Source of the DNA: a phage | Reading direction: 5' to 3' (one strand) | Length of the DNA stretch: 64,000 nucleotides | NCBI GenBank assembly: GCA_020381345.1 | Contig: GCA_020381345.1_3636.1 | In this document: positions 9,777 to 64,000 of the stretch, in pieces | Numbering within the stretch: position 1 is the first letter of the stretch | Layout: each line of letters begins with the position of its first letter | The notes under the pieces: model-generated | Told to the model about the DNA's origin: nothing | Databases searched by the model: none | The model's input: only the letters and a program-made list of their open reading frames with translations | Translations under genes and position numbers: made by a program

Positions 9777-11267
9777 GTGGCTAAGTATGGATTGACAGAG
9801 GCTGGTTTCGTTATACCAACCCTAAATGACCTAATCGTTGAAACTAAGCAAAGCCTGATCCGTGCTTTTGGCGAAAACTTCAACGTACAGAGTAACTCCG
9901 TTGCAGATAAGCTGACCACTATCTTCAACGAGCGAGAGTATCAACTTATTCTTATGGCAGCATCTGTATACGCATCACAGACGCTGTATGGGGCAGAAGG
10001 TATTTACCTGGATGAGCTTCTTGGAAGACAGGGTATTTACCGAAGAGGCCGTTCTAAATCATCAGGTACCTGCCAGTTGACGATCAACACAACTGTGCCG
10101 TACAATATGATTTATGATTCCAAAACTTATACGCTGGATAGTGGCAACTTTGTTCTTAGCAATGATGTGCAAGTGGCAGGGAATCTTATTGCCCACAGAA
10201 TAAATGCTCCAGACCTGAGGATTGGTAAATACAACTTTCAAATTACCAACCAGACAGATGGAAGTATCAAAACAAAAAGTTTGGTTTTAACAGATAAGGC
10301 TCTGGACTCTTCTGATCTGCCAAGCTTTTACGGAGAGATTAAGCAATTCATTGTCGATAATACAACCCTGTTGAACGACGATTTGATTCAGATCGATATG
10401 TTGACAGGAACGTTGTGGATAGGGTACAATTCGAATCTTGATCAAGTTGGACTTAATAGTAGGGTAGATTTCAGAGTATCCCCGATTGTAGGGGAAAGAA
10501 CTATCACACTGGATGTTATCGCTAACGAGGCTGGTGAGCTGTCAAGAGAAGCAGAAACCGTGACAACAATGTCACCTACTCCTAGTGGATTTATCAAGCT
10601 TACCAACCGAGAAAGATTCAATGAGGGCAGGGATGTTGAGAAAGACTCAGAGTATCGCTTAAGAGCTTCCAGCACAAAACAGTTAACATCTAAGGCTACC
10701 CGTCCTGCAATCCTTAGCGCTGTAAGCGAGGTGAAAGGTGTTGAGAAAGTGAGAGTGTTCTCCAACAACACCGATAAAACTGATGCTAAAGGTATACCTC
10801 CTTACAAGTTCCAAGTGGTTGTGTTTGGTGGTGCAACGGAAGACATTTGCCAAGCACTTTACCAAACTATAGCCTGTACGAACAGGACTTATGGTAATAT
10901 TTTCTACGATGTCACTACATCTGACGGTCAAACTGAAAGAATTTATTACTCCAAGGCAAACACCTACCGCCTGGATATGAGAATTACCTACTCCGGTGCT
11001 GCGCTTTCTACAACCGAAAAAGATGCCATTATAGAGGCTCTTTTGCAGGTTGTTAACGGACTGGATGTTGCAGATACGTTGTATAATATCCAATTGGTAG
11101 GTGCTGCATCTGCTGCTGTGTCAATAGGCAGATTTAATAGACTGGTAATTCAAGTTAAATCCGTAGGAGCTTCTGATGAAGCTTACACTACAAACGATAT
11201 TGTTGCGAACATGACCGAGGTGTTTGACCTCGACGAAAGTAATATAACTTTCCAACAAACTATTTAA
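9777..11267 (+). CDS. baseplate J-like (wedge) protein
   Basis: GTG start with GGAGG RBS; N-terminal segment LDELLGRQGIYRRGRSKSSGTCQLTI resembles the conserved baseplate-J family motif; followed by I-like, fibre and Tfa genes as in P2-type baseplate modules. Confidence 0.5.
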   Translation: MAKYGLTEAGFVIPTLNDLIVETKQSLIRAFGENFNVQSNSVADKLTTIFNEREYQLILMAASVYASQTLYGAEGIYLDELLGRQGIYRRGRSKSSGTCQLTINTTVPYNMIYDSKTYTLDSGNFVLSNDVQVAGNLIAHRINAPDLRIGKYNFQITNQTDGSIKTKSLVLTDKALDSSDLPSFYGEIKQFIVDNTTLLNDDLIQIDMLTGTLWIGYNSNLDQVGLNSRVDFRVSPIVGERTITLDVIANEAGELSREAETVTTMSPTPSGFIKLTNRERFNEGRDVEKDSEYRLRASSTKQLTSKATRPAILSAVSEVKGVEKVRVFSNNTDKTDAKGIPPYKFQVVVFGGATEDICQALYQTIACTNRTYGNIFYDVTTSDGQTERIYYSKANTYRLDMRITYSGAALSTTEKDAIIEALLQVVNGLDVADTLYNIQLVGAASAAVSIGRFNRLVIQVKSVGASDEAYTTNDIVANMTEVFDLDESNITFQQTI

Positions 11268-11278
11268 GGCGGCGAGAT

Positions 11279-11965
11279 ATGGCAGAGATTAAGTCGGATG
11301 TTAACCACATCCACACTCTGCCAGATTTTGTTCAGGGAGGTCTTGACTACCTACCTGGAGATTTTCTGGCTGAGAAGGTTAATTTAGTCACATTCTTAAC
11401 CGTATACCTTAAAAGGTTGGAGGATGTTGATAAGATGCTGGTAGGTTTGGCTGAAGGAAGATTGCTTAACAATGCCAGCGGAAGATACCTTGACGAAGTT
11501 GGTAATCAACTTGGTATTCTTAGGAATGGACTTTCAGATGCTGATTTTCGTGCCACACTAATTATTCAGCAGGCCGCAGCATCAAGGGGCGGGACTCGCG
11601 AAGATGTCATCTCCACCTTGCGACAATTGTTCGGAAGAGACAATTTCGATACGTGGAAAGGAGACAACTTCAGGTTTGACATAAATATTAGAAAAACTTG
11701 CTTTGACATATTGCAGTCTATCGATCAGATCTTAGATATGCTACCATTACCTTGTCATTTACGTCTTACAGAATCGCAAGGGCAAGCTTTTGGTTTTGAA
11801 GGGGACTCTACAGCTCTTGGCTTCGGATCAGTGTGGGAAGAAAGCCAATTCGGAGTTGGTGGGCTGGCTACTTTGCTATATGTTCCTGACGTAAGACCTG
11901 ATTGGGACACCACAACCATTTATTGTGAAAGTATTACAGTAAACGCAACTAGACAGGAGGGTTAA
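11279..11965 (+). CDS. baseplate protein (gpI-like position), hypothetical
   Basis: 228 aa ORF immediately downstream of J-like gene. Confidence 0.35.
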   Translation: MAEIKSDVNHIHTLPDFVQGGLDYLPGDFLAEKVNLVTFLTVYLKRLEDVDKMLVGLAEGRLLNNASGRYLDEVGNQLGILRNGLSDADFRATLIIQQAAASRGGTREDVISTLRQLFGRDNFDTWKGDNFRFDINIRKTCFDILQSIDQILDMLPLPCHLRLTESQGQAFGFEGDSTALGFGSVWEESQFGVGGLATLLYVPDVRPDWDTTTIYCESITVNATRQEG

Positions 11966-24858: not shown

Positions 24859-24870
24859 CAGGAGGCAAAT

Positions 24871-24900
24871 AAAAAAGGGGCCGTTTGGCCCCTTTCTTTT
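24871..24900. terminator. bidirectional rho-independent terminator between convergent operons
   Basis: AAAAAA GGGGCC GTTT GGCCCC TTTCTTTTT. Confidence 0.65.
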
Positions 24901-24905
24901 TATAG

Positions 24906-25106
24906 TTAGTAATACTCCCAACATGCCCCATCTTCAGACGGCTTGACGCGCTTACCTTTATGGTCAACATAGGTATAGCCACAACCTTCACAAATAACAG
25001 GTGCTGCATAGCCTTCCTTCCACTGATCCTCAGTGATCAGACCTTCCAAATCTTTGCAGTCAAAGCCAAACAACTCTTCAGAGCAATCTTTACAAAAATC
25101 AGCCAT
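24906..25106 (-). CDS. small zinc-ribbon protein
   Basis: 66 aa with CxxC...CxxC (CKDCSEE...CEGCGYTY). Confidence 0.4.
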   Translation of the reverse strand: MADFCKDCSEELFGFDCKDLEGLITEDQWKEGYAAPVICEGCGYTYVDHKGKRVKPSEDGACWEYY

Positions 25107-25109
25107 TTC

Positions 25110-25517
25110 TCAGTCCTCGCATTTAACAAATTTTTCTACAGATCCACCAAGCACAGCTTGTTGTTTGATGGCACTTTCTTCATCATAGTGAATAGACTTA
25201 TGTTCCGTACCTCCAAACTTACCTGTGTGGAAGGTGTGCACCCAAATCTCTTTAGGAAGGGATTTATTCTCTTCTTCCACCAACTCCCACATTCCCCATA
25301 AGTGATCTGTGATATCTCTGATGAAATATCCCTCGCCTAGGTTTGTATTCACACTATAAGCTGATTCGTGATCTCCACAAATATAACGGAAGGCTGTGTA
25401 CTCTTTACCTGGTGTGAAGTGGGTATCCATTAGTATAGCTGTTAAAGAATAAGGGTCTCGAAAGCCCAAGAACTTTAGTTTAACAATTTCGACATTCACA
25501 CTTGCAAGATTCTCCAT
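25110..25517 (-). CDS. hypothetical protein
   Basis: 135 aa ORF in leftward operon. Confidence 0.4.
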   Translation of the reverse strand: MENLASVNVEIVKLKFLGFRDPYSLTAILMDTHFTPGKEYTAFRYICGDHESAYSVNTNLGEGYFIRDITDHLWGMWELVEEENKSLPKEIWVHTFHTGKFGGTEHKSIHYDEESAIKQQAVLGGSVEKFVKCED

Positions 25518-25680
25518 GGCAGTCTCCTCTGTTTGGTTGGTGAGATAATCCTATACAAATCTGTTGTTGGTGTCAAGATTAATTTTAAGAGATCTGAGAG
25601 GGTATTTTATTCAGGAAGGCAATCGCACAGGGTGGGGCAATTTATGAAGGCACAGGCCTCGTTTGAGGCCTTAAATTCTA

Positions 25681-26061
25681 TTATGACACTTTGACATAGC
25701 GCTCTGACAAAGCTGGGAAGCCAAAAGTAGTGCCTATACTACCATAGGCTATCCACCATTGAAGTTCATCGTGACACCATTTTCCGATCAGGAAGGTGCT
25801 GGGATAGCGGGTCAGTATTTTGGCATAAGCTTTAGGATCTGCATCTTCTGGGATAATGATGCTTGGAACATCTTTGTTATGACCACAGCAGCAGTTTAGC
25901 GTTTTCAAACCTGCTGCCCACAAACTCATGATAGGCTTAGCCATACACTTATCAAGGCACACACGTTTTTTGCCGTCACGGAGCTTTTTAGGCACATCAA
26001 CGATAACATTTTGATGCTTGGCACCTTTCACTTTCCAATTATAGGATTTACACTTGCACAT
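25681..26061 (-). CDS. Cys-rich hypothetical protein
   Basis: 126 aa; multiple Cys incl. NCCCGHN. Confidence 0.4.
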   Translation of the reverse strand: MCKCKSYNWKVKGAKHQNVIVDVPKKLRDGKKRVCLDKCMAKPIMSLWAAGLKTLNCCCGHNKDVPSIIIPEDADPKAYAKILTRYPSTFLIGKWCHDELQWWIAYGSIGTTFGFPALSERYVKVS

Positions 26062-26091
26062 TTAGTCAGTCTCCATCTAGAAAGCTATACT

Positions 26092-26298
26092 TTACTTAAA
26101 GTCTTTATCACCTGCCACGATTGCATGAATCCACTCATTGTGATGCTCAATAGCGGTGAGATGTAACATGATGTAGTGATCGTCATTGCCAAACATGATA
26201 TGATAGGCTTTGGCAGCATTTTGATATAACTTCCACATCAGGTAATGATATCTTCGCCTCATGGCCTTACTCCGGTTCAGGATCTGGGTAATCTTCAA
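26092..26298 (-). CDS. hypothetical protein
   Basis: 68 aa ORF in operon. Confidence 0.3.
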   Translation of the reverse strand: MKITQILNRSKAMRRRYHYLMWKLYQNAAKAYHIMFGNDDHYIMLHLTAIEHHNEWIHAIVAGDKDFK

Positions 26299-26737
26299 TA
26301 ATAAAGGGCCATCCGTTCCGCTTAGCCGCAGACTTATACTCGATCTCCTTCATTGCAAACTCTAACTGATTCTTAGCCGGAATACATGCCGGAGAATCAT
26401 CAATCCAGATATCTGGGTAGATATCAAACTGCGCCAGATAGGCTGCCTTCTGGACACCACCAGTATAAAACACACCAACATCGAGATCCTTACGCCAATA
26501 CTCAATGTCTACATTATCTTGAGTAATGAATCGGAAAGTCACAAGGTATACTGTCCACCCTTCCTTTTTCAAGTCCCTAATCAGGCGGGAGAAGATGAAA
26601 GGACTCGCATTAAATGTTCCATCAAAGTCAATGGCAATGATGTGTGTGCCGTGGCGTGTCTCATATGGATTGCTTGTGGTAAGATTGCTGTAGTTAAAAG
26701 GGACCTCTTCCCCGCAGTAGCTGTAGTCCATATTCAC
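26267..26737 (-). CDS. HAD-superfamily phosphatase-like protein
   Basis: Motif IIAIDFDGTF (DxDGT, HAD motif I) near N-terminus. Confidence 0.5.
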   Translation of the reverse strand: MNMDYSYCGEEVPFNYSNLTTSNPYETRHGTHIIAIDFDGTFNASPFIFSRLIRDLKKEGWTVYLVTFRFITQDNVDIEYWRKDLDVGVFYTGGVQKAAYLAQFDIYPDIWIDDSPACIPAKNQLEFAMKEIEYKSAAKRNGWPFIIEDYPDPEPE

Positions 26738-27009
26738 ACCTTCTCGTTGATAAATTTACGGGCGGTTTGGTGAGTTGTTTCTGCTGTCTTCAGAATGATA
26801 TTAATTTTATCGTCAAGATCATTCATCTCAGCAGTTAATTCAGGAATCTCTCCGGCATGCATGGTGAAATCATACATAGACATACCCAGGATCTCATTGA
26901 TTCGGCGGTTGCATTCTGCAGCACGCTGGTTCATTTTCCAAGCCAACACCAGAGCCTCTTGCGTAGCCTCCAGTGCAAAGTCTAATACGTCAGCTTCTTC
27001 TTTCGTCAT
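26734..27009 (-). CDS. hypothetical coiled-coil protein
   Basis: 91 aa ORF. Confidence 0.35.
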   Translation of the reverse strand: MTKEEADVLDFALEATQEALVLAWKMNQRAAECNRRINEILGMSMYDFTMHAGEIPELTAEMNDLDDKINIILKTAETTHQTARKFINEKV

Positions 27010-27064
27010 CTCAGTCTCTCTTGTTGTATTGTTAGTAGGTGCATGAACACCTTATATCTCACTT

Positions 27065-27631
27065 TTATTCAAACTGCAATAGCAAGTCCACCACCGCGCT
27101 AGGTCTGTCAACAAATTCCCCAGGTCCACATGCCCACAGAGGGTATCCGTCCACATACCGCCAAATCCAACCTGCAGTGTGGAGTTCGAGCAGGGCAGCA
27201 CCGTCCTTACTGTCAACCACTCTTTCCCACAGTGTTGGGCAGCGAAGCTTGAGAATCGGATCACCTCCCTTATACCCGTCCATGTAGATACCCATTGCAA
27301 AGTTCAGCATCATCTTTTTGTGCACTGATCTCTTACTGAGGGTGCTCATCACTTCCTCTTTGTGAATGTTTGTAAGCTTCTCTTTGGCTACCCGCAGATC
27401 GTTGCAACCATTGTTCAGCAGATCTTCCAGACACTTGATCCGAAGGTCGTGAATGTCTTTGTCGTGTACCGTTGGCACAGGGTCGTAGCGGTATAGCACT
27501 GTTGATACAAGGTTGCTCGGGTGTGGGTCTGACAGCAACCCATAACCCCAATACTCTTCTGTATCTGAAAGGACAAGACACCCAATGTCTCTGTCAAGCT
27601 TTCCTGTGTTGTAAGCCACATTGACCGCCAT
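27065..27631 (-). CDS. hypothetical protein
   Basis: 188 aa ORF. Confidence 0.4.
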   Translation of the reverse strand: MAVNVAYNTGKLDRDIGCLVLSDTEEYWGYGLLSDPHPSNLVSTVLYRYDPVPTVHDKDIHDLRIKCLEDLLNNGCNDLRVAKEKLTNIHKEEVMSTLSKRSVHKKMMLNFAMGIYMDGYKGGDPILKLRCPTLWERVVDSKDGAALLELHTAGWIWRYVDGYPLWACGPGEFVDRPSAVVDLLLQFE

Positions 27632-27633
27632 GA

Positions 27634-27879
27634 CTATAGCTCCACTAGCAAAGTGCTTTCAAAGTGCCGTTCATGCAGACCGTTGTAAGGGACCACTTCC
27701 ACAACGCCATCACGGACATATGGGGCCATCATGGTGGTATAATCTCCAAACGGGTTGGTATTGTCACTAACCACAACCACCTTCTGCCCTTCCTTGGCAG
27801 AGTGCCAAATAGATCTGCACTTCATCAGGTGTTCGAGAGCTCCAGGTAAAATTTTGTTACGTTCTTTACGGGTCTTCAT
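27634..27879 (-). CDS. hypothetical protein
   Basis: 81 aa ORF, coupled. Confidence 0.35.
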   Translation of the reverse strand: MKTRKERNKILPGALEHLMKCRSIWHSAKEGQKVVVVSDNTNPFGDYTTMMAPYVRDGVVEVVPYNGLHERHFESTLLVEL

Positions 27880-28325
27880 AACAGATATAGCTCCTTATGA
27901 AAGTGGTCTTTTAATTTCTCACTGAGAAACTTCTTGATACCTTCCTCTAAAGTGTTTTCGATGTAGTCCAGCTTAACTGCTTCGATGGACATATCATAGA
28001 TCGCCAGCTCTAAGCTGTCAAGTCCCATCATAGCATGAACCATAAGATTTTCATCTTCAGATACATTCAGGGGACTTCCTATAACATCTGTAGGTAGGAT
28101 AGTTTCCCAATTATTCTGGGGGGTAGTTCTCCCACCATCCACTTTACGGCGCAGTTCGAAGGTGTTCTTAGTGTAGAACACTTCATAAGAAACGATACGA
28201 CTATCGCTCTCATAATAAACGAAGTTCAGGTAGGAGCCTAGCCGCAGTCGGCAAACTTCTACCCCAAACCATTGTTTCTTATAAGAATTCAGGCTAATGC
28301 TGTCGCATTCACGCTTGCTCAACAC
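27876..28325 (-). CDS. hypothetical protein
   Basis: 149 aa ORF. Confidence 0.4.
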   Translation of the reverse strand: MLSKRECDSISLNSYKKQWFGVEVCRLRLGSYLNFVYYESDSRIVSYEVFYTKNTFELRRKVDGGRTTPQNNWETILPTDVIGSPLNVSEDENLMVHAMMGLDSLELAIYDMSIEAVKLDYIENTLEEGIKKFLSEKLKDHFHKELYLL

Positions 28326-28341
28326 GGCTATCTCCTTTTTG

Positions 28342-28575
28342 TTAATCTTCGTAAATCAAGATTTCTGCTTTAGGTTTTCGTGCTTTCAAGTCCAGCTCTA
28401 TCCAGTGCACCATAGCTGTTTCAAGAAAAACAGCTTGGATGCATCCGTCCTCAGCGTGCCCCACCAACATAACAAGATCTTCACCTTCGTCATCTGCATC
28501 ACGAACATACAGAATCTCTCCAGATTCAAAGTCTTTCACAACCTGATTGCTGGATAATTTACGAATTTTTGCCAT
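28342..28575 (-). CDS. small hypothetical protein (possible member of a 3-gene paralog set)
   Basis: 77 aa; similar size and composition to the next two genes. Confidence 0.35.
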   Translation of the reverse strand: MAKIRKLSSNQVVKDFESGEILYVRDADDEGEDLVMLVGHAEDGCIQAVFLETAMVHWIELDLKARKPKAEILIYED

Positions 28576-28576
28576 A

Positions 28577-28840
28577 TCAGAAACCCTCTAAAAAGCTCTT
28601 GTAGAAAATAATTTCAGTGTCCACACCTGTCACGATCTTATCGTTTCGGATCTCATCTGTGAGGTAGGTATCGAAACGTAGTACTTGTGTGGTATTGTTA
28701 CACATCCACTCAGCTGTGACCATTGCGAAAATCTTAGCATCTTCATTATCTGGTGTGAATGTTACCACCTCGCCGCACTTAAACTTTTCGATAGGTTGAG
28801 TGTTAGCTTTCGGTTCTGCGATAGTGATTTTCGTGGTCAT
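28577..28840 (-). CDS. small hypothetical protein
   Basis: 87 aa. Confidence 0.35.
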   Translation of the reverse strand: MTTKITIAEPKANTQPIEKFKCGEVVTFTPDNEDAKIFAMVTAEWMCNNTTQVLRFDTYLTDEIRNDKIVTGVDTEIIFYKSFLEGF

Positions 28841-29106
28841 TACTCTTCCTCCATAGTTTCACCAAATACTTCGATACGAGCATCGAGCTCGGTTGCTTTC
28901 AGCTCCCCAACAAAATCTTTTAGTTCTTTCTCGTCCAGATCGTAAGCCCACACACAAGAAGAACATGCAGATTTCACAATCAGCAGCGTAGATACACGGC
29001 CTGACTCTGTGATCATGCTCACAATGGTTCCAACAGGGAACGTGTTGATAGCTTTTTTAACTGGTCGTTCAGCTTTGATTACTACCTCTGTTGCCATAAA
29101 TAACAT
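28840..29106 (-). CDS. small hypothetical protein
   Basis: 88 aa. Confidence 0.35.
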   Translation of the reverse strand: MLFMATEVVIKAERPVKKAINTFPVGTIVSMITESGRVSTLLIVKSACSSCVWAYDLDEKELKDFVGELKATELDARIEVFGETMEEE

Positions 29107-29112
29107 CCTCTC

Positions 29113-30573
29113 TTACTTAGCGTACTCAATTAATTCCACAGTTTTCCCAAAGCTCGGGATATAATTTTTATTATACCCCTCGGTGAGAACCCATAAAGTA
29201 TCGTACTTTTTCCACTTGTTGTCAACAGCCTTTTGTTCAAAGTTATGCTCAAAGTATAGGTCTGTCAATACGATGACATCTTTTGCATTCGGTATGTTGG
29301 CATCCAGATACTCGAACACGCAAGCAGCTGTTGTGCCCCATGTTGAGTGGACCTCATAGTTGATCATCTCATCTATGTTACCGCGAGTGTATACTTTAAC
29401 CTCTCCAACCTCAGTTGACCAACAGAACATTGTAACCTTAAACTCTTTATACAGATTGCACAATCCGGTGATTTCATTGAACATTTTCTTTAAAGTTCTT
29501 TGAGAGATCGAGCCAGAAACGTCTAAAGCTACCACAATATCTATGGTGTTTTCCGGATTACGACCAGGAACAATAACGTGCTGGTTCTTGTTTATAGCCC
29601 CAACTTTTCGCATTGTGCTGGTCAAAGACCCAGATCGGCGACCAGGTTTTCTGTAGGTCAGTTCAGCCTTTCGTTTAGACAACATGCGTTGCTTGATGAT
29701 GTCTATATAATTGATTACAGGCTTACCTCTATTCTTGACAAACTCACGAACCGCCTCAGGGCAACGGCCTCCGGAAGCTTGCATTGCTGCCTCCAGCATG
29801 TCACCAGAGTCCTGCATGGCCTGATCTTTATCAGATTGACTGATTACAGGTTGTGGCTGATCATACCCCATAGCCTTTCCAAGATCATCACTGGTGCCAC
29901 CGTTACCACTCATGTGATCATCGGTTTGTCGCTTATCTCCTTGAGAGTTCTCACCTTTACCGCTCTTACTTTTACCGTTATTCTGATCTCTTTGCTTATC
30001 AAGAACTGCATAGACGTTCTCAGCAATCCATCCATGAAACTTCATGTCGCAGTAGCAGCTGGCTAAGAATCCAAAAGGCTTACCTTTCACGAACGTAGTG
30101 CTTTTCCCCTTCGGGAAGAAAACACAAGGGGGCTTGCTAAAGTCAACCACAAGACCTGTGTTGATAACGTGATCACAAGCAATATTGAACAGTTCCGGCT
30201 CAAAGCTTTTACCACGGACCAGGTGATCACAGATAATATGTCCCACCTCATGTGACAGAAGGAAGGCCACCTCTTTCACAGATTTTGGGGAATAGAAAAC
30301 TTCAGCCATCTCAAACTGCTTGTCAGTTAGAGAAGCCTTAAGAATAGCCTTGCGTTCATCAGCCAATCCCATAATGAACTCAGGACTGTAATAAATGCGT
30401 TTATGGTCGGTTGCCATGGTGGAGCACCATGTGTGGTTTTCTACGAACTGCAACCCTGACAGCAGTGTGCCATAAAACGGCAGCTTTTCAAGGAGATACA
30501 TACGTGCAGCCTGCAACATTCTCAGGGCATCATCTTTTTGTGAGGCAATGATTTCTGAACTTCTGCTATCCAT
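29113..30573 (-). CDS. metallopeptidase-like (HExxH) + von Willebrand factor A domain protein
   Basis: HEVGHIICDH zinc-protease-type motif in N-terminal half; VALDVSGSIS (DxSxS MIDAS) in C-terminal half; start placed at the second ATG (MDSRSSEI) which has a GGAG RBS; the track start at 30594 lies inside a hairpin. Confidence 0.6.
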   Translation of the reverse strand: MDSRSSEIIASQKDDALRMLQAARMYLLEKLPFYGTLLSGLQFVENHTWCSTMATDHKRIYYSPEFIMGLADERKAILKASLTDKQFEMAEVFYSPKSVKEVAFLLSHEVGHIICDHLVRGKSFEPELFNIACDHVINTGLVVDFSKPPCVFFPKGKSTTFVKGKPFGFLASCYCDMKFHGWIAENVYAVLDKQRDQNNGKSKSGKGENSQGDKRQTDDHMSGNGGTSDDLGKAMGYDQPQPVISQSDKDQAMQDSGDMLEAAMQASGGRCPEAVREFVKNRGKPVINYIDIIKQRMLSKRKAELTYRKPGRRSGSLTSTMRKVGAINKNQHVIVPGRNPENTIDIVVALDVSGSISQRTLKKMFNEITGLCNLYKEFKVTMFCWSTEVGEVKVYTRGNIDEMINYEVHSTWGTTAACVFEYLDANIPNAKDVIVLTDLYFEHNFEQKAVDNKWKKYDTLWVLTEGYNKNYIPSFGKTVELIEYAK

Positions 30574-30606
30574 TAAAACTCCAGAAGGGGCCATTGGCCC
30601 CTGTCA

Positions 30607-31650
30607 TTATTTAACGTGTTTGAAAATACCTGCCAACTCGGTCATTGTCATGCGGGTGGTCTTCATAAGATCTGTCATAGCTTTCTCCATAATTGGAGAT
30701 ACTACCATAAAGTTTCCTTTAGTGAAACCTTTATTCCAGTCGGTCACCAACAGCGGTTTAAGTCCAGCTCCGAGACGTTTACCAGTTAAAGCACAGCATT
30801 TGCGAATATACGAACTCTTAAATTGGCTGAACGATAGATCAACTTTCATACCTGCATCGTAGAACGTTTGACAATAGAAAGTGTAAGCCTTAGCAATCTC
30901 AACATCATCAGGTAGTGCAGGAACCTCTTCTGCAATCTCCTCTTCAACCACCTGAGGCTCTTTTTCCTCTTCAGAGGTCTGTTCTTCAATTTCTTCTGTC
31001 ACAGTCTCGTTTACGATGTCTGAAATGTGTTTGTTGGCTGCACGATCAGCCATGAAATTTTTAAAATCCTGCATCGGTGACATATCTTCTTCCTCTTCGT
31101 CAAATAGTGCTAGTTTATCTTCTTCTGACCCGTATTGCAAGATGAAATCTTCAAAAGTATATTCATCTTTTAATTCCTCCATACGCTCTTCGCTCAGGTG
31201 GAGCATCATCTGCTGGACAATTTTTCGATCAGTTTTGTCTTTAATCAGGATTGCAGTCTTTTTATCTACCAGACAGTCCTTCAGAGCGTTGCACCTCAAC
31301 CCTACCACACAACAATTATCAATTGCGTAAGGACCTTCATCATCTATCCGCTCCAGAGATGGGTAGAAAGGATTTCCCAGTCCGTTTTCATCTGTGTGCA
31401 TGTCGAAAGGTATAAGGGTATAGTCGCATACCCCCTCTCCTAAAAGTTTTTTACCAAATAGGAGGTATTCTTCCCACGACAGGTCGAACTCTATATCTCG
31501 TTTCCGTGCGTTATTCTGTTTGCGTCTATATTTTTTGAGCAAGCGCTCTAACTCTTCTGGTGTATAATATTTTTCAAGATTCATGAGTCGTCTCTCGTGC
31601 TCTGTAAGTGAAGAAATCGTATCAATTGTCTCAACAGATGTCAACATCAA
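30607..31650 (-). CDS. hypothetical protein with acidic linker
   Basis: 347 aa; first gene of leftward operon; glutamate-rich central segment. Confidence 0.45.
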   Translation of the reverse strand: MMLTSVETIDTISSLTEHERRLMNLEKYYTPEELERLLKKYRRKQNNARKRDIEFDLSWEEYLLFGKKLLGEGVCDYTLIPFDMHTDENGLGNPFYPSLERIDDEGPYAIDNCCVVGLRCNALKDCLVDKKTAILIKDKTDRKIVQQMMLHLSEERMEELKDEYTFEDFILQYGSEEDKLALFDEEEEDMSPMQDFKNFMADRAANKHISDIVNETVTEEIEEQTSEEEKEPQVVEEEIAEEVPALPDDVEIAKAYTFYCQTFYDAGMKVDLSFSQFKSSYIRKCCALTGKRLGAGLKPLLVTDWNKGFTKGNFMVVSPIMEKAMTDLMKTTRMTMTELAGIFKHVK

Positions 31651-31657
31651 AAACGTG

Positions 31658-31686
31658 TTGACTTTACTCTAACTCCACAATATAGT
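31658..31686 (+). promoter_or_regulatory. sigma70-like promoter for rightward middle operon
   Basis: TTGACT-17-TATAGT, ~40 nt upstream of ATG 31727 in divergent intergenic region. Confidence 0.5.
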
Positions 31687-31726
31687 GCACCCATTCGAAA
31701 GAAAACTAACATAGGAGCACTTACTT

Positions 31727-32626
31727 ATGGCAAATCTTAACAGTTTTAGTACGCGGTGGAAACAGGACATAACAACCAATCTTTCAGCTGGGGACATCCT
31801 TTCTGCAATTTACGAGGCTTTAGATGATAAAGCTACTTCAAAAGCGGTTTGTACCAACCCACTAATTCCTGTAGTGATGAAGGTTATTGAGCGTAGATTG
31901 GTATCTGGGTCTGATAAGTGGACATATTTAGATAATGAAGGACACACCTATTCCAATGGGTACGTCGATATAAAAGTAGAATACGCGGTATCATACCGCC
32001 GGAGCGGTTCTGTAACTTTCAACTTCTCTGGAGGTTTTCGATCTCTGGCTACCTCACCTTTTGTTTCCTCAGAGGAGAAGTATGAGCTGCCATTTCTTTG
32101 GATGATGGCTAACGCGACAGGAAAAACCCCCGTTAGCATCCGAGTAAAATACAACTACAACGGATCTAGTAAGATCTATGCCGAAAGTGTCTCAGCAAGT
32201 TTTTATTTTGTGATGGGGGATGGAATCCTCAAACATATAAAGATGTGCGATATGCATGATGTTATAAATGAAGTGACTGATAAGAATGTTCTAGTGAAAG
32301 ACCTCAACAATTTTTATACACCCGGAGACTATTACGTCAGCCGTCCACTGTGCATCTTTAATGCCGCACACCCTCTAGGTGAGTATTTGATCGCCAATAG
32401 CGATATTGCCAATAACCGCTTCGAGGTAGCAAGAGTTCAGAATGAGGTATTGACATCCTGCAAAAGTGGTGATAAATTTACTGATGAAGAGATGGGTGTT
32501 TTAGAAATGATGGGGTATAAATGCAGTCTTTGGGTAGATGAGGTGTTTAATGACTACATCTCCGGACAGGATATTTACCCGTTAAAGAAGTATACTGATA
32601 CAAGTTTAATTTATGCGGGGATTTGA
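31727..32626 (+). CDS. hypothetical protein
   Basis: AGGAG RBS 9 nt upstream; promoter TTGACT-17-TATAGT upstream. Confidence 0.45.
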   Translation: MANLNSFSTRWKQDITTNLSAGDILSAIYEALDDKATSKAVCTNPLIPVVMKVIERRLVSGSDKWTYLDNEGHTYSNGYVDIKVEYAVSYRRSGSVTFNFSGGFRSLATSPFVSSEEKYELPFLWMMANATGKTPVSIRVKYNYNGSSKIYAESVSASFYFVMGDGILKHIKMCDMHDVINEVTDKNVLVKDLNNFYTPGDYYVSRPLCIFNAAHPLGEYLIANSDIANNRFEVARVQNEVLTSCKSGDKFTDEEMGVLEMMGYKCSLWVDEVFNDYISGQDIYPLKKYTDTSLIYAGI

Positions 32627-55964: not shown

Positions 55965-56018
55965 CGACCATCTTCTGAGGTGATATAGTCTCCACAACAA
56001 CTAAGAGAGGAGAGCACT

Positions 56019-56189
56019 GTGGAGACTAAAATCTTAATTCTTGCTGTGGTAGATACAACCGAAGGAGCTATATTCGAATCTGCAGGAGGGTATTTCTACC
56101 TACCATACGGAAAAAGAACTTCCGAGCCAAGTAAAGATTCAATCCGCAAAGTGTTCCCGTGTGCTTTCTGGCTGGAGATTTTGGTATAA
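56019..56189 (+). CDS. small hypothetical protein (56 aa, below track threshold)
   Basis: GTG start 7 nt after GAGGAG. Confidence 0.25.
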   Translation: METKILILAVVDTTEGAIFESAGGYFYLPYGKRTSEPSKDSIRKVFPCAFWLEILV

Positions 56190-56215
56190 GATTGCAGAGG
56201 ATTTGGGAGAGAATT

Positions 56216-56410
56216 ATGAGAAACAAGAAAGAGCTTTACTCTGGTGAGTGGATCAACGATCAACAGGTGGGAGAGGTAACCTGCTTCCGATGTTTTACCA
56301 GGTACAATCTTAAAACTGCACCAAAAAGTGTTCCAAAGACTGATGGTTATTACATAAAAGAACCTTATTGCCCAAAATGTAAATGCCGATTATACTGGAG
56401 TAACCTGTAA
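56216..56410 (+). CDS. small zinc-ribbon protein
   Basis: GGGAGAG RBS; CFRC ... CPKCKC. Confidence 0.4.
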   Translation: MRNKKELYSGEWINDQQVGEVTCFRCFTRYNLKTAPKSVPKTDGYYIKEPYCPKCKCRLYWSNL

Positions 56411-56473
56411 AAGATTGACATCTGAAAACTGCAGTGTATAATATATGCATAAACTAACAGAGAGTGATGTATT

Positions 56474-56665
56474 ATGGTAATTTTTAACCGGGATGGTATC
56501 ATAGTTAGACAGCACCCGTTCCTTGAATACTATCAAATTGAGCAATGGTGCTACGGGGATTGCAGTCACTCCTATGGGCAAAGTTGGGGATATCGTACAG
56601 TTTTTGAATCCACAGACCTTGACAAAGTAAGACAGAAAGTTTTAGAACTTATTAACAACAAGTGA
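56474..56665 (+). CDS. hypothetical protein
   Basis: 63 aa ORF. Confidence 0.35.
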   Translation: MVIFNRDGIIVRQHPFLEYYQIEQWCYGDCSHSYGQSWGYRTVFESTDLDKVRQKVLELINNK

Positions 56666-56672
56666 GTATGAT

Positions 56673-57005
56673 ATGGTAACATTAGAAAGACGTAAAGCTA
56701 TCGCCGCCACACTGGCAGACATCTTTTGGGAGTGCAATTTAAAAGATACTAGATATTGTGGCGCATCTGTAGATGCATTGTTCCCACGGCCTACTATTGT
56801 TGCAATGGGCAACCTGCTCGATGTGGTATATGGAGCATGGGACAAGGAAGGTGGATTCTATATCTGGCAACCTGACTACGGGACTTGGAAAGAGGTTAGT
56901 GGTTCTTCGGACTTCACTCCTGCAGTGGCTAAAATGGATGGCTGGAAAATCTATGTCGGTAACGACATGGAACTGAAAGGCGAAATTGTTTACTGGTTAC
57001 CTTAA
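56673..57005 (+). CDS. hypothetical protein
   Basis: 110 aa ORF. Confidence 0.4.
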   Translation: MVTLERRKAIAATLADIFWECNLKDTRYCGASVDALFPRPTIVAMGNLLDVVYGAWDKEGGFYIWQPDYGTWKEVSGSSDFTPAVAKMDGWKIYVGNDMELKGEIVYWLP

Positions 57006-57026
57006 GAAAGTCCAGGAGATAAAGTT

Positions 57027-57272
57027 ATGAACAAAGGGTGGACATTTGTAGACGGCGTTAAAAACATGCCTCTAGGAAAGTATATTGTAGCCATGGCAGA
57101 TGAGAATGGCAATGTGGATTTCGGAGCTTGCGAGGTTGTTCTTGCAGGATCTGGTAACTATGTGGACAAAACCGGGATAATTAACGGTCAGTTCTACTTT
57201 GATCACAACCCTGTTGTAGCGTATATGGCTATGCCAGAGTTCAAGTTCCCAAAGGAGGGTGCAGATGTTTAA
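57027..57272 (+). CDS. hypothetical protein
   Basis: CAGGAGA RBS. Confidence 0.4.
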   Translation: MNKGWTFVDGVKNMPLGKYIVAMADENGNVDFGACEVVLAGSGNYVDKTGIINGQFYFDHNPVVAYMAMPEFKFPKEGADV

Positions 57273-57462
57273 GCTTAAATCTGCATGGAACATCGCTGTG
57301 GGGGACGAGATCCGTATCCCAGGTGGAAAGACCATTATGAAGATATCTCGTATCGAGTACGAAGGTGATCGTGTATTTCATATCTTTGCAGAGGATGGTC
57401 GAGAAATTTATATACAGGCAGGCTCTCACATCTATATTCGTAAGAAAGGGGACGACAAATGA
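57259..57462 (+). CDS. hypothetical protein
   Basis: AAGGAGGG RBS. Confidence 0.35.
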   Translation: MQMFKLKSAWNIAVGDEIRIPGGKTIMKISRIEYEGDRVFHIFAEDGREIYIQAGSHIYIRKKGDDK

Positions 57463-57788
57463 CAGAGATCATCATTTCAACTGCAGGGTATGTGTTCCTG
57501 ACAATCATTGCACTGACCATTCTGGTGGTGGTATATGGAATTGTTATTCTCCCTATTCTTGAGACAATTAGTTTGTGTCGGTGTTGGAGAAAGGCTTACG
57601 GTCCACAGCCGTGGAAGGACTGGCCCCACCTGGTGCACATAGCGTTCTCTTATGCTTATGATCACGCCAGCAGTGCATGCATAACCGGGTATCACGCCCA
57701 CAACTGGAGCTGGGAAGGGTTGAGGAAATGGAATGTTACAAAGACCATACCTCTGCGCATGTACAAACCTAAAAACAAAGACAGCTGA
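57459..57788 (+). CDS. membrane protein (N-terminal transmembrane helix)
   Basis: AAAGGGGA RBS; hydrophobic N-terminus IIISTAGYVFLTIIALTILVVVYGIVILPIL. Confidence 0.4.
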   Translation: MTEIIISTAGYVFLTIIALTILVVVYGIVILPILETISLCRCWRKAYGPQPWKDWPHLVHIAFSYAYDHASSACITGYHAHNWSWEGLRKWNVTKTIPLRMYKPKNKDS

Positions 57789-57819
57789 TACTTGAAAATT
57801 CCTGGCATATCAAGTATAA

Positions 57820-58300
57820 GGGGGATTTCTAAAATGGATTTCCTCCTTTTGATATTTCACCGGGCCGGATATTTTAAAATTCTTAGAAAATCAGAAAATG
57901 GATCGAAAACTAAAATGGATTTTTCAGAGTAGGCGCGACAAGCTGAATAACTCATCCTATCGTTTGCACCATATTCCAGGCCACCATTATAGATTTCCCA
58001 CACATGCTAACCTCTCTCTACTAGAACTTCCTCCACTTACCCTTGACCTTCTATGGTAACAATCTAACCGCTATCTTGAAGTTGCGGTGCAGCTTTCCAG
58101 GTACTCGATCTACTTTTCATTTCAGGGCTTGGATTTTCTGAAAATTTTTCTCGATAAATTTCTCAGTACTCGATCTGTTTTTCGTTTTCTGAATCGGATT
58201 TTCTGGAAATCGTTCCGGCTCTCAACCTGAAATTTTTGGGGACGAAATCGATTTTTCGTTTTCAGAAATGGATTTTTAAAATTTCTATATGGGAATATTT
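57820..58300. repeat. AT-rich non-coding region with recurring AAAATGGATTT / GGATTTTCTG / ATCGAAAAC motifs
   Basis: No credible ORF; motif recurs at ~57833, 57896, 57913, 58131, 58196, 58270. Confidence 0.5.
58098..58210. repeat. imperfect ~48-bp direct repeat, two copies, ~66-bp period
   Basis: CAGGTACTCGATCTACTTTTCATTTCAGGGCTTGGATTTTCTGAAAAT vs CAGTACTCGATCTGTTTTTCGTTTTCTGAATCGGATTTTCTGGAAAT. Confidence 0.55.
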
Positions 58301-58392
58301 TAGTGGATACTATTTTATAGTAAATTGTTACGGAGGGTAATTAGCGTGCTAATTAAATTTATTAAATGCGAGGAGTTCTCATTTAGAATTTT

Positions 58393-58650
58393 GAATGATA
58401 ATCATTCTCGTTTGCAGAATAACGGGCAGGCCCAGTGATTGTCTCCCGGCCCCTGTTGCCCCGGCTTGTTATTATAGTATCACACAGGACAAAGAAAGCA
58501 AGGATTTTTTGCATAAATTTTTAAATGATAATGATAACCGTTCTCATTTTATGCAGCGCCCATCCCCGGTGGTTGTCTCCCCCGTCACCGGTGCCTGCCG
58601 TCCTTTCGATAGGTATATTGTGCCACCTGGCGGGGCCGCTGTCAACACTT
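58393..58650. repeat. two paralogous GC-rich units in otherwise AT-rich spacer
   Basis: Both start AATGATAAT, then TTCTC, GCAG, TTGTCTCCC, GTGCC; second unit followed by direct repeat CCTGGCGGGG. Confidence 0.4.
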
Positions 58651-58742
58651 TTCAAAAAATTTTTCTAACCTGATGCGCTAACCGCTGCAACCTGGCGGGG
58701 GCGGCAGGTGGATTCTATCATAAAAATAATTTAAAATAGTCG

Positions 58743-58771
58743 TTGACAACAAGGTTAATCATGGTATTATT
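58743..58771 (+). promoter_or_regulatory. sigma70-like promoter (early)
   Basis: TTGACA, ~16-17 nt spacer, TATTAT. Confidence 0.45.
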
Positions 58772-58820
58772 ACCCTACAAGGTGAACAACACCGCACTAA
58801 CCAGTAAAGAGGATAAATTT

Positions 58821-59018
58821 ATGAACGCATACGGGATCAAAGTACGTCGCAACACTCGCCAGGTGGTCACCAATCAAGTGATTTGCCGGGTGGATGTAAC
58901 CATCAACAACGGGCAAGGCCTTTATAAATTTCGTCGCGGTCATAGCTATACCCTGCAACAGCTTAATCGTTGCGCCCTGACAAAAGGTCAGATCAACCAC
59001 TGGTTTAATAAAAAATAA
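58821..59018 (+). CDS. small early protein
   Basis: AAGAGGA RBS before ATG 58821; 65 aa; basic. Confidence 0.45.
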   Translation: MNAYGIKVRRNTRQVVTNQVICRVDVTINNGQGLYKFRRGHSYTLQQLNRCALTKGQINHWFNKK

Positions 59019-59020
59019 AT

Positions 59021-59049
59021 ATTGACATGTAGTCTGACACAAAATATAC
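59021..59049 (+). promoter_or_regulatory. sigma70-like promoter (early)
   Basis: TTGACA-17-TATACT. Confidence 0.55.
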
Positions 59050-59082
59050 TGAAATCACAAAAGACACTAAGAGGATAAAATC

Positions 59083-59481
59083 ATGAAAACCACAACCTTT
59101 AATTTTGATAATGCCAACTTTTCTTTTTCTGATGTCAAGAACTGCCGCCGTGATCGTGGATTTTACAAGGCTTATAATCTGGTGGGCCTGGACGATGACA
59201 ATAATTTGCACGAAGTAGCTGAGATCCGGTATTATGCCGCCGCCAGCGGGAACACTTACTACTGCGTTTTTTGGATACACGACAACAAGAACAATAAGTA
59301 CGGCTATACTGGCGGCAAGGCGAGCGGTCACGGTTATGATAAAGCTAACGCAGCACTTGAGAGCGCATTAAATGCTATGGGGATCACTGCCGACGGCTGG
59401 ATCTACGAAGAAGAGTTTTTGTCGGCACTTGCTGACCACCTAGGCTATAAAAAGCACATTGTAACATGCGCCCACGAATAA
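59083..59481 (+). CDS. early protein, hypothetical
   Basis: AAGAGGA RBS; 132 aa. Confidence 0.45.
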   Translation: MKTTTFNFDNANFSFSDVKNCRRDRGFYKAYNLVGLDDDNNLHEVAEIRYYAAASGNTYYCVFWIHDNKNNKYGYTGGKASGHGYDKANAALESALNAMGITADGWIYEEEFLSALADHLGYKKHIVTCAHE

Positions 59482-59487
59482 AAATCA

Positions 59488-59515
59488 TTGACACGCTGCA
59501 AAATTTAAGTAAACT
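59488..59515 (+). promoter_or_regulatory. sigma70-like promoter (early)
   Basis: TTGACA-16-TAAACT. Confidence 0.45.
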
Positions 59516-59563
59516 AGACACAAAAGGCGGGAATGTTTCCCGCCAGCACAAAGGAAAAAGATC

Positions 59564-59968
59564 ATGAATAAGAACGTACGCCGCATCATGAACGAGTTGG
59601 CAAACGATGAAAAAATTATTGACATGCATTTGATCAACATTTGCCGCCGTTGTGTAACATATAACAACCGCGCCGCAAAAGCGCGTGAGATGAACGCAAA
59701 AGGCACCTTAAAGCCATTCCAGGTGGTGGTAAAGGCCATTAAAGATGTAACTAATACGGCAAACCAGGTACAGGGGAACACCAACGAGAGTACCAACATT
59801 GATCCGGCTTACATCATGAAACGGATCCGGACCTGCAAGAACAAAGAGCAAGTGTATAATGTCATAGACTGGTTGGATTCTATGGGCGATGTGGTTTACA
59901 ATAGGTTTTCTGCAGCTATCGAGATCCAGCTTGACAGGTTGGACGGTAAAGTACTGAAAACTTACTAA
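59564..59968 (+). CDS. early protein, hypothetical
   Basis: AAAGGAAAAAG RBS; 134 aa. Confidence 0.45.
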   Translation: MNKNVRRIMNELANDEKIIDMHLINICRRCVTYNNRAAKAREMNAKGTLKPFQVVVKAIKDVTNTANQVQGNTNESTNIDPAYIMKRIRTCKNKEQVYNVIDWLDSMGDVVYNRFSAAIEIQLDRLDGKVLKTY

Positions 59969-59979
59969 GTTTATTTTTA

Positions 59980-60016
59980 GATGGCCTTGACTTCAGGGCC
60001 ATCAATAAAGTAAACT
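59980..60016 (+). promoter_or_regulatory. promoter cassette: 7-bp-stem hairpin enclosing -35 (TTGACT) then TAAACT
   Basis: GATGGCC TTGACTTCAG GGCCATC inverted repeat; near-identical copy at 60604-60640. Confidence 0.5.
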
Positions 60017-60051
60017 AATCTCAACTAAGCGAAAAAAAAGGGGGCTTTAAG

Positions 60052-60171
60052 ATGAGCACTACACGCCAATACACAAAGGTAACTATTATCGTTTGCGTTG
60101 TCGGTTACATCCTGGCGCAAATGTTAATGAGTAGCGCTAACAGTTTTGCAAAATTTTTCTTAAATTTTTAA
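60052..60171 (+). CDS. 39-aa hydrophobic peptide (below track threshold)
   Basis: GGGGG RBS 7 nt upstream; MSTTRQYTKVTIIVCVVGYILAQMLMSSANSFAKFFLNF; own promoter. Confidence 0.4.
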   Translation: MSTTRQYTKVTIIVCVVGYILAQMLMSSANSFAKFFLNF

Positions 60172-60172
60172 T

Positions 60173-60199
60173 TGACAAACTAACTTAGATCGATATACT
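60173..60199 (+). promoter_or_regulatory. sigma70-like promoter (early)
   Basis: TTGACA-15-TATACT. Confidence 0.4.
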
Positions 60200-60250
60200 T
60201 AAACACGTAAACGGGAAAACTTCCCAGAGCACACAAAAGGAGAAAACACC

Positions 60251-60592
60251 ATGACTACTATGACCGCCGCAGAAAAAGCTATGCAGATCGCCGCGCTGAA
60301 AAAACAGATCGCAGACCTTGAGAACAAGATCGATAACTTTGAAATCGACGAGGACAAGTACGACGAAAACTATGATGAATGGTTAGACGAGATCTACGGC
60401 GAAATTATGATCGGAAACATTTCTTTTCTTCCGTCGCGTATCCTCAAGGAGCTAGATCCTATCGCTTACCGCTGCGGATTTAGCGACTACATTGACAGCC
60501 TGGATATTGAGGACGATGAAGAATACCAGGAACTACAGACAGAGTTAGAAGAAGCAAAAGAAGAGCTTGCGGAGCTGGAAGAAAACGAGTAA
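60251..60592 (+). CDS. very acidic early protein, candidate DNA-mimic anti-restriction protein (Ocr-like by composition and context)
   Basis: AAAGGAGA RBS; 113 aa, Asp/Glu-dominated, ends EELAELEENE. Confidence 0.45.
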   Translation: MTTMTAAEKAMQIAALKKQIADLENKIDNFEIDEDKYDENYDEWLDEIYGEIMIGNISFLPSRILKELDPIAYRCGFSDYIDSLDIEDDEEYQELQTELEEAKEELAELEENE

Positions 60593-60603
60593 GATTATTT
60601 TTA

Positions 60604-60640
60604 GATAGCCTTGACTTCAGGGCCATCAATAAAGTAAACT
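60604..60640 (+). promoter_or_regulatory. promoter cassette copy (hairpin + TTGACT ... TAAACT)
   Basis: GATAGCCTTGACTTCAGGGCCATCAATAAAGTAAACT. Confidence 0.5.
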
Positions 60641-60681
60641 TTATACTGTTAACACTGAACTAATTCAGAGGAGTTAAAACC

Positions 60682-60927
60682 ATGGCAGCACTAATCACCA
60701 AATATTACGCCCCTACCAACACCAAAAGCGCCCGTATCATGGTAAAAGGCTTCGGACGTAAAAAGGTTTACACCTGGGATTATTCCCTAGACATGGAAGA
60801 CAACTACACCAACGCGATGACCGATTTTATTAACGAGCTGAATACGCGGATCTTAACAAATTATAAAATTACCGACATTGCTTATATAGGTGAAGGCGGG
60901 ATCTGTTTTGTAGGCATTGTGAAATAG
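60682..60927 (+). CDS. early protein, hypothetical
   Basis: AGAGGAG RBS; 81 aa. Confidence 0.4.
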   Translation: MAALITKYYAPTNTKSARIMVKGFGRKKVYTWDYSLDMEDNYTNAMTDFINELNTRILTNYKITDIAYIGEGGICFVGIVK

Positions 60928-61002
60928 TTATTTTTTCGGTGGTCCTTGCTGCAGGGCCATCTATAAAGATAATTTACTAACACCATGAAAGGAGAAAGTA
61001 AC

Positions 61003-63866: not shown

Positions 63867-64000
63867 GCCATGCACCGATAAGGTGCGCCGCGTTATGGTA
63901 TAGCTTGAGATTATCGCCCTTGAAATATTGCTAGGCGTAGGGATGTACTTTATCGCTGTAAGTAACTAGGAACGGCCCCCGATCATGGGGGCCTATCTTT

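Follow-up and report, generated by a model that had tools for sequence, protein, structure and literature searches.

Fur-Box Palindromes in a Conserved Non-Coding Region of a Vequintavirus: a Possible Iron-Gated Early Control Region

Introduction

What is the role of a repeat-rich stretch of about 950 base pairs (bp), lying directly upstream of an array of strong early promoters, in the genome of a lytic phage? The question is raised by positions 57790-58740 (the region) of a 64,000-nucleotide (nt) stretch of phage DNA, referred to here as the window (NCBI GenBank assembly GCA_020381345.1, contig GCA_020381345.1_3636.1). The first-pass annotation proposed that the region is non-coding and represents the physical left end of a linear genome or a replication origin. 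The most informative feature of the region is absent from that annotation. It is a set of palindromes which, by sequence, are Fur boxes, the sites of Fur, the iron-sensing repressor of the host. The reading favoured here, with a probability of about 0.5, is that the region is a conserved early control region, possibly a replication origin, which would be gated by host Fur.

Between positions 57400 and 59100, the window is 95-99% identical to the Escherichia phages EdH4, Gotham, nom, FFH2 and Murica, and ~90% identical to rV5. The source phage is a Vequintavirus, an rV5-like myovirus with a genome of ~137 kb. By the annotation of EdH4, read in the orientation of the window, a block encoding DNA polymerase, helicase-primase, PIF1-helicase and rIIA/B is followed by ~20 small genes, the region, and then ~28 small genes. 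Many of the latter have a strong sigma-70 promoter in front, and all run toward the physical end. The region is the boundary between this end-proximal block of small early genes and the block of replication genes. It had been described as lying between middle/late genes of the + strand and the early promoters. The promoter array is directly downstream as described, but the label "late" does not apply, as the upstream genes form a DNA-replication/early-middle block.

Fur Boxes

The consensus Fur box is a 19-bp sequence, GATAATGAT(A/T)ATCATTATC, to which functional sites of the host come no nearer than the boxes of the region. The fepB box of Escherichia coli (E. coli) has five mismatches and the entC box has three, the latter being located downstream of the entC transcription start (PMC5020551). 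Fur works by promoter occupancy and its sites cluster (PMC2189734).

Two such boxes are found in the region (Table 1). Box 1 matches GATAATGATAATCATTATC at 15/19 positions, and AATGATAATCATTATCATT at 17/19 at the identical site of EdH4, and is conserved across genera. Box 2 matches the classical consensus at 16/19, which is the top score in the window and tied for the top in the whole EdH4 genome. With four and three mismatches respectively, boxes 1 and 2 are the two best consensus matches in the 64 kb, where shuffled sequence yields 0.5 sites at >=15/19. No site outside the region in the complete genome of EdH4 (136 kb) scores above the region's boxes on either consensus. For the AATGATAATCATTATCATT form, the boxes of the region are the sole sites at >=16/19 in EdH4, with 0.1 expected. 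Both boxes have dyad symmetry, and their match to the consensus exceeds chance. A degenerate remnant of a third box stands 29 bp upstream of box 1, a spacing equal to that of the box arrays in 4MG, EC152, PBES02, POP17 and F4M1E. The other genomes carry one to five boxes each, and 4MG contains a perfect 19/19 box.

Across genera, nothing within 54-64 kb of the window still aligns apart from the stretch 58353-58510, an early gene at 62.1-63.2 kb and short pieces of the repeat units. The boxes and the adjacent segment match Seunavirus, Mydovirus, Certrevirus, Hena1, Av-05-like phages and Phapecoctavirus, including PVP-SE1 and KpS8. The module to which they belong is present in at least five genera of Vequintavirinae, in Phapecoctavirus and in distant metagenomic phages, and its parts follow a shared order. 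Three to five lineage-specific repeats of 55-75 bp (GGTTCTCGATCGA...ATCGTATTTTTTCT...GAAAAAATTTTT) are followed by an AT-rich stretch, one to five palindromes of the form AATGA(T/G)AATCATTCTCATT, often 29 bp apart, and an invariant GAAT(G/A)(A/G)C. Next is a GC-rich segment of 40-50 nt containing GGTGnTTGTCTC, followed by a leftward promoter with conserved hexamers and a variable spacer. In genera other than Vequintavirus a second conserved leftward element precedes the first early promoter, which closes the module. A profile built solely from the other genera finds exactly two sites in the 64 kb, 58391-58449 (E = 6e-19) and 58530-58582 (E = 1e-5).

The boxes are invariant while the neighbouring repeats turn over completely, which argues for a host protein as the ligand. 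In two metagenomic contigs (L027 and L045), the order is kept with unrelated repeats and the same palindromes recur at a 35-bp spacing. Repeats bound by a phage protein that evolves with them, next to boxes bound by an invariant protein of the host, would be expected to give this pattern. The palindromes might instead be operators of a conserved repressor encoded by the phage, with a chance resemblance to Fur boxes, as they are tandem and beside promoters in the manner of phage operators. Such a repressor is improbable in view of matches to the host consensus of up to 19/19 and of boxes that stay constant across lineages with fully diverged repeats. Furthermore, the flanking genes differ between genera, which leaves the module with no linked candidate for a repressor gene.

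Conservation and Non-Coding Character

The region is a real, conserved, non-coding cis element. Among seven relatives within the genus, positions 58150-58700 are 96-99% identical; the flanking genes, taken in 50-bp bins, show 79-99%. The least conserved part within the genus is 57900-58100.

The proposal that positions 57790-58740 lack credible coding capacity is borne out by substitution counts over codon positions and by frameshifts. An open reading frame (ORF) of 92 amino acids (aa) at 58395-58673, annotated in relatives and assigned to phrog_14993, has 7/7/9 substitutions at the first, second and third codon positions, and in EdH4 it contains a frameshift. The counts for the ORF at 57898-58059 are 28/26/21. 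In real flanking genes they are 23/14/54 and 3/4/13. The annotated ORFs of the region thus show no third-position bias, and they are frameshifted in some relatives. A Pfam search of the ORFs of the region gave no match, and a scan for tRNA and tmRNA found nothing. The small annotated ORFs were therefore rejected as genes on codon-position analysis and frameshifts, the PHROG match merely mirroring the same annotated ORFs. By these tests, several of the "hypothetical proteins" listed in more than 100 GenBank records, namely rV5 ORF198, ORF199 and phrog_14993 (window 58395-58673 and 57835-58059), correspond to non-coding DNA.

Promoters and the Proposed Iron Gate

Two leftward promoters are predicted within the region, P-minus-1 and P-minus-2, the second being strong and divergent from the first early promoter (Table 1). 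The counterparts of P-minus-1 in other genera read TTGCAA-17-TATATT or TTGATC-16-TATTAT, so that the hexamers are kept and the spacer varies. Further strong rightward early promoters were located by scan at 59022 and 59488. The Fur boxes are situated at approximately +52 to +86 of the predicted leftward starts, and box 1 also covers the candidate rightward promoter. If used, promoters that face each other in this way could give rise to short sense and antisense RNAs that overlap.

The mechanism proposed from this arrangement is as follows. Host RNA polymerase would start at both leftward promoters and, passing over the GC-rich segments in the direction of the AT-rich stretch and the iteron-like array, would make a non-coding RNA. 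Iron-loaded Fur, on boxes 50-90 nt downstream of the leftward starts, would block or throttle this transcription. The activity of the array would thereby be tied to the iron status of the host. The most likely roles of the array would be origin activation or priming, or the binding of a phage protein. An iron gate would fit a phage that replicates with its own iron enzymes, and the phage encodes the iron-dependent ribonucleotide reductases NrdAB and NrdDG.

The closest known arrangement is the bidirectional fepB-entC region of E. coli, which has two Fur boxes. Both regions contain more than one near-consensus 19-bp palindrome, with three to four mismatches in the phage and three and five in E. 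coli. The E. coli boxes lie over a promoter or just past a start, in a region of oppositely oriented promoters, and those of the phage would do so with respect to its predicted promoters. The phage boxes differ in being carried on a virulent phage genome, with no iron-related gene, and no gene at all, downstream. They also sit in a repeat array and are duplicated one to five times at 29- or 35-bp spacing. The phage region is without detectable DNA similarity to any E. coli genome. Recent capture of a host promoter was rejected as the source of the GC-rich/Fur segment, since a comparison with 5,426 E. coli genomes showed no DNA similarity.

Several points weigh against the favoured reading. Fur binding and promoter firing are predictions from sequence, and a conserved phage protein could, in principle, be the binder of the palindromes. 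The rightward TTGAAT-18-CAGAAT promoter is doubtful because its critical -11 A is not conserved across genera, several of which have CTGAAT, CGGAAT or GGGAAT. The spacer of P-minus-1 in the window is 19 nt, which is sub-optimal. A terminator or defined 3' end was looked for and none was found for any of the proposed RNAs. The GC-rich segments do not fold more stably than shuffled sequence (z = -0.9 to -1.8). In a count of pairs for the hand-chosen hairpin, the proportion of cells that pair is 70.8%, and sliding the register gives an equally good result. The points that concern an origin are given below with the repeat array.

GC-Rich Segments and RNA Structure

The two paralogous GC-rich units of the first-pass annotation are confirmed by an alignment of 58380-58480 with 58514-58660, which are 70% identical. 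Each of the 20 variants could form a hairpin around GTGnTTGTCTC, with differing stems. RNAalifold, run on a MAFFT alignment of the GC-rich segment, gave no consensus structure for either strand. The G-U pairs are contradictory as a clue to the strand, with the variant of the window pointing to the minus strand and that of POP17 to the plus strand. A relaxed Rfam 15 scan of window 56000-61000 and four related loci found no match at E <= 1. When targets of the GTGATTGTCTC core were sought in the window, the matches were no more numerous than expected by chance.

A different leftward element of ~100 nt, with its own sigma-70 promoter, occurs in Seuna-, Mydo-, Certre- and Phapecoctavirus (L004 at ~2118-2275 on the minus strand, L003, L005, L012, L020-L026 and others). 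It contains a CGCC/GGCG hairpin and a pseudoknot-type CCCC:GGGG pairing, for which Ro1 has the compensatory change CCAA:TTGG, and it has no Rfam match. This element is probably an undescribed phage RNA. It is missing from the window, where GC-rich unit 2 occupies its place. A leftward gene of 60-88 aa lies between the module and the first early promoter in other genera (L004 2294-2476, L005 2327-2518, L020 1517-1783, L026 1528-1791; minus strand) and is also missing in the phage of the window.

Repeat Array and the Question of an Origin

The elements named in the first-pass annotation are all present, above chance. The imperfect direct repeat is found as three units, 58091-58137, 58156-58202 and 58230-58276, which are 70-74% identical. 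Their start-to-start spacing is 65 and 74 bp, and the first two units extend to 57 nt. The units have homologues in the GGTTCTCGATCGA...ATCGTATTTTTTCT...GAAAAAATTTTT arrays found in other genera, with BLAST links to the arrays of PVP-SE1 and KpS8. As for the short motifs, three of the five copies of AATGGATTT in the window and both copies of GGATTTTCTG fall in the region. GGATTT has 7 of its 34 + strand copies within the region, which makes up 1.5% of the window, and its reverse complement has 0 copies in the region compared with 12 in the window. The AT content at 58250-58400 is 66-78%, against a window mean of ~56%. The motif TTACGGAG(G/T)G at window 58328-58337 is present three times at ~70-bp spacing in L027 (~315-480), where the repeats that precede the Fur boxes have it as their core.

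This layout suggests that the array may be an origin, since repeats are followed by an AT-rich stretch, promoters are directed into the array, the module is conserved apart from its neighbours and no origin is known for these phages in the literature. The units would bind an initiator of the phage, the AT-rich stretch would unwind and leftward transcripts would activate or prime replication. Such a function is compatible with Fur control and is put forward tentatively, with odds clearly below even. Iteron-type or promoter-activated origins include lambda ori, P1 oriR, the T4 oriE, the primary origin of T7 and that of ColE1. The region shares with them direct repeats beside an AT-rich stretch and (predicted) promoters, in tandem, directed into that stretch. 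The repeats number three to five across genomes, with three full and two partial units in the window. They are lineage-specific within a conserved layout, and conservation of the module does not depend on that of the flanking genes.

The repeat units are long for iterons, at 47-57 bp, and two to three times longer than is typical. Unlike such origins, the region has no initiator gene alongside and no DnaA or IHF boxes; the motifs TTWTNCACA and WATCARNNNNTTR have no occurrence in 57700-58800, and GATC shows no enrichment. GC skew in the window tracks the direction of transcription, with no separate origin signal. The one stretch of negative GC skew, window 24000-32000, corresponds by coordinate mapping to rV5 genes 11-26, which the rV5 paper names as transcribed in the opposite direction. 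A published skew analysis of rV5 likewise found no origin (PMC3606486). The missing boxes and initiator gene and the published skew analysis also count against the origin part of the favoured reading.

Position Relative to the Genome Ends

The earlier proposal of a physical left end, terminal repeat or pac site is refuted for close relatives. The virion DNA of Vequintavirus has fixed ends with direct terminal repeats of 458-459 bp, as reported for EdH4/HdK5, LL12 and Gotham (PMC6563267, PMC6658697, PMC7471380). The record of EdH4 has a 459-bp repeat at both ends, and its sequence differs from that of the region. Position 64000 of the window aligns to EdH4 5779, and the region aligns to 11.0-12.2 kb of the 136 kb of EdH4. 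The genome end is therefore ~5.8 kb past the window and ~11 kb to the right of the region. The ends of EdH4, Gotham and LL12 are 11-12 kb from the region; the terminal repeat of LL12 (104,966-105,424) is 11.6 kb from its own copy. In the Mydovirus KPP-1, the terminal repeat (116,316-116,829) is 8.3-8.9 kb from the homologous module. Although a region that is repeat-rich, non-coding and adjoins early promoters might resemble a terminus, the ends are mapped elsewhere in four relatives from two genera. The region is single-copy in each genome, with no second copy at the record ends (EdH4). A terminal function is thus highly improbable. Two records which start in or beside the module (phiWec189 and EC152) were considered as evidence of termini and set aside, as they look like arbitrary cuts of circular assemblies.

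The distance from the fixed end recalls phage T5. The untranslated Repeat Region 3 of T5 is a proposed injection stop. Located at 7.9% of the genome, it contains 66-bp repeats, palindromes and DnaA boxes and shows higher conservation than its neighbours (Davison, bioRxiv 10.1101/866236). The present region is similar in being ~1 kb of untranslated DNA with direct repeats of ~66 bp and palindromes, conserved above the adjacent ORFs. Its distance from a fixed end is 8.1-9.0% of the genome, and it borders the small early genes, 28 of which, with sigma-70 promoters, are transcribed toward that end. It also has clustered boxes for a host DNA-binding protein, and Fur-like boxes are found at both ends of the block. 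By analogy, DNA entry would pause after the early block, with Fur, and not DnaA, in the role proposed for DnaA in T5. This is an improbable function for the region. The terminal repeat is 459 bp and not 10 kb, and it excludes the region. There are no A1/A2 genes, and no large A1-like gene, as the largest annotated gene of the end-proximal block is 624 bp (EdH4 annotation); the A1 protein of T5 is roughly 560 aa. The DnaA boxes of T5 have no equivalent in 57700-58800. Two-step injection has never been reported for these phages, and even in T5 the function of the site has the status of a model.

Fur-type sites also occur at the genome end. The terminal repeat of EdH4 (L051) has weaker Fur-like palindromes at 10-28, 126-144 and 145-163, the last of which is identical to box 2 at 17/18 positions. 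In KPP-1 (L057), the terminal non-coding region at 116,713-117,460, inside or next to the direct terminal repeat, has five sites at >=15/19. Between these terminal sites and the module of KPP-1 there is no site at >=15/19. Taken with the boxes of the module, the terminal clusters indicate that the end-proximal early block is bracketed in two genera. It is possible, though held with less confidence than the favoured reading, that in strictly lytic rV5-like and phAPEC8-like phages Fur operator arrays bracket the early block so that iron gates early non-coding transcription and the start of replication, or so that phage DNA titrates Fur in favour of iron import.

In its purest form, titration would make the boxes a decoy with no regulation of phage genes. 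Hundreds of replicating genomes, with several strong boxes apiece, would sequester Fur, derepress the iron uptake of the host and feed the ribonucleotide reductases NrdAB and NrdDG. Multicopy Fur boxes do titrate Fur in vivo, which is the basis of the Fur titration assay (PMC2189734). The variation in box number from one to five by tandem duplication and the extra Fur-like boxes in the terminal repeat region of EdH4 and KPP-1 are consistent with this. A pure decoy is nonetheless unlikely, as the boxes are fixed in position and orientation relative to the promoters and the GAATGAC motif across genera, a constraint which a decoy would not need.

Features and Neighbouring Genes

The coordinates of the individual features are listed in Table 1. 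The inverted repeat at the left border may mark the end of rightward transcription.

Table 1. Features of the region and its borders, in window coordinates. Promoters and Fur boxes are assigned by sequence.
Feature	Position	Strand	Description
Inverted repeat	57785-57820		11-nt arms, 14-nt loop; spans the stop codon of the upstream gene (57459-57788)
Two partial repeat units	57787-57948	+	81 bp apart; GATAyTTkAAAATTCyT ... AAAATGGATTT
Repeat-free spacer	57949-58090		78-88% identity among Vequintavirus relatives, below the rest of the region
Three iteron-like units (~65 bp)	58091-58290	+	Form GTACTCGATC-N-TTTTC-N-TTTTC-N-GGATTTTCTG-GAAAATTTTT; 96-99% conserved in the genus
AT-rich stretch	58291-58364		Hairpin TAATTAGCGTGCTAATTA (58338-58355); motif TTACGGAGGG, also in contig L027
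Degenerate Fur-box remnant	58365-58383		AATGCGAGGAGTTCTCATT, 12/19; 29 bp upstream of box 1
Candidate rightward promoter	58391-58396, 58415-58420	+	TTGAAT, 18 nt, CAGAAT; overlaps Fur box 1
Fur box 1 (by sequence)	58394-58412, within 58391-58420	+	AATGATAATCATTCTCGTT; overlaps the candidate rightward promoter
GC-rich segment 1	58424-58466		Potential hairpin that includes the core GTGATTGTCTC (58435-58445); the flanking promoters on both sides would transcribe the segment
P-minus-1 (predicted, sigma-70-type)	58471-58501	-	TTGCTT (58501-58496), 19 nt, TATAAT (58476-58471)
Fur box 2 (by sequence)	58524-58548		Two overlapping boxes 6 bp apart, AATGATAATGATAACCGTT and AATGATAACCGTTCTCATT
GC-rich segment 2	58556-58612		Paralogue of segment 1; core GTGGTTGTCTC; CCGGTG...CACCGG hairpin
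P-minus-2 (predicted, strong)	58617-58645	-	TTGACA-17-CACAAT, TG upstream; 10/12 matches; divergent from the first early promoter
A/T tract, then GC-rich inverted repeat	58649-58712		Holds the junction of a 226-bp deletion
First strong early promoter (predicted)	58743-58770	+	TTGACA-16-TATTAT; 11/12 matches
65-aa gene	58821-59018	+	Would be driven by the first strong early promoter; supported as a gene by a third-position substitution bias (3/4/13)

The genes adjoining the region encode small proteins of unknown function. The upstream gene (57459-57788) specifies one such protein, which has a hydrophobic stretch at its N-terminus. Window 58689-58700 is the junction of a 226-bp deletion relative to EdH4 (11,075-11,300), rV5 and Gotham, by which the small gene rV5 ORF197 was lost. 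The two BLAST pieces share 12 nt at this junction, which suggests a microhomology-mediated deletion. In addition to the Escherichia phages, 17 GenBank records named "Campylobacter phage" (MG065646-MG065666) are 94-99% identical to the region; these are probably mislabelled or contaminant coliphages.

Significance

Searches of the literature on Vequintavirinae/Stephanstirmvirinae turned up no account of Fur boxes, of an origin or of transcript maps for the region. In the literature found, the only known Fur boxes on phages serve cargo genes, and the phages are temperate. Temperate lambdoid prophages contain a Fur box upstream of sitABCD, which ties the phage into the Fur regulon of the host (PMC6969025). 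That box controls a cargo iron-transport operon of benefit to the lysogen, whereas in the present case the phage is strictly lytic and the boxes are in its own core control region.

The module is the first concrete candidate for an origin or control region in these genomes, for which the published skew analysis had found none. If Fur does bind, it would be by means of a cis element and not a gene that lytic phages of a large group sense or manipulate the iron homeostasis of the host. Relatives of the phage are used in therapy and biocontrol, including rV5, PVP-SE1, phAPEC8 and Klebsiella Mydovirus. As iron is limiting in the gut and during infection, the performance of such phages in vivo could be altered by this form of control.

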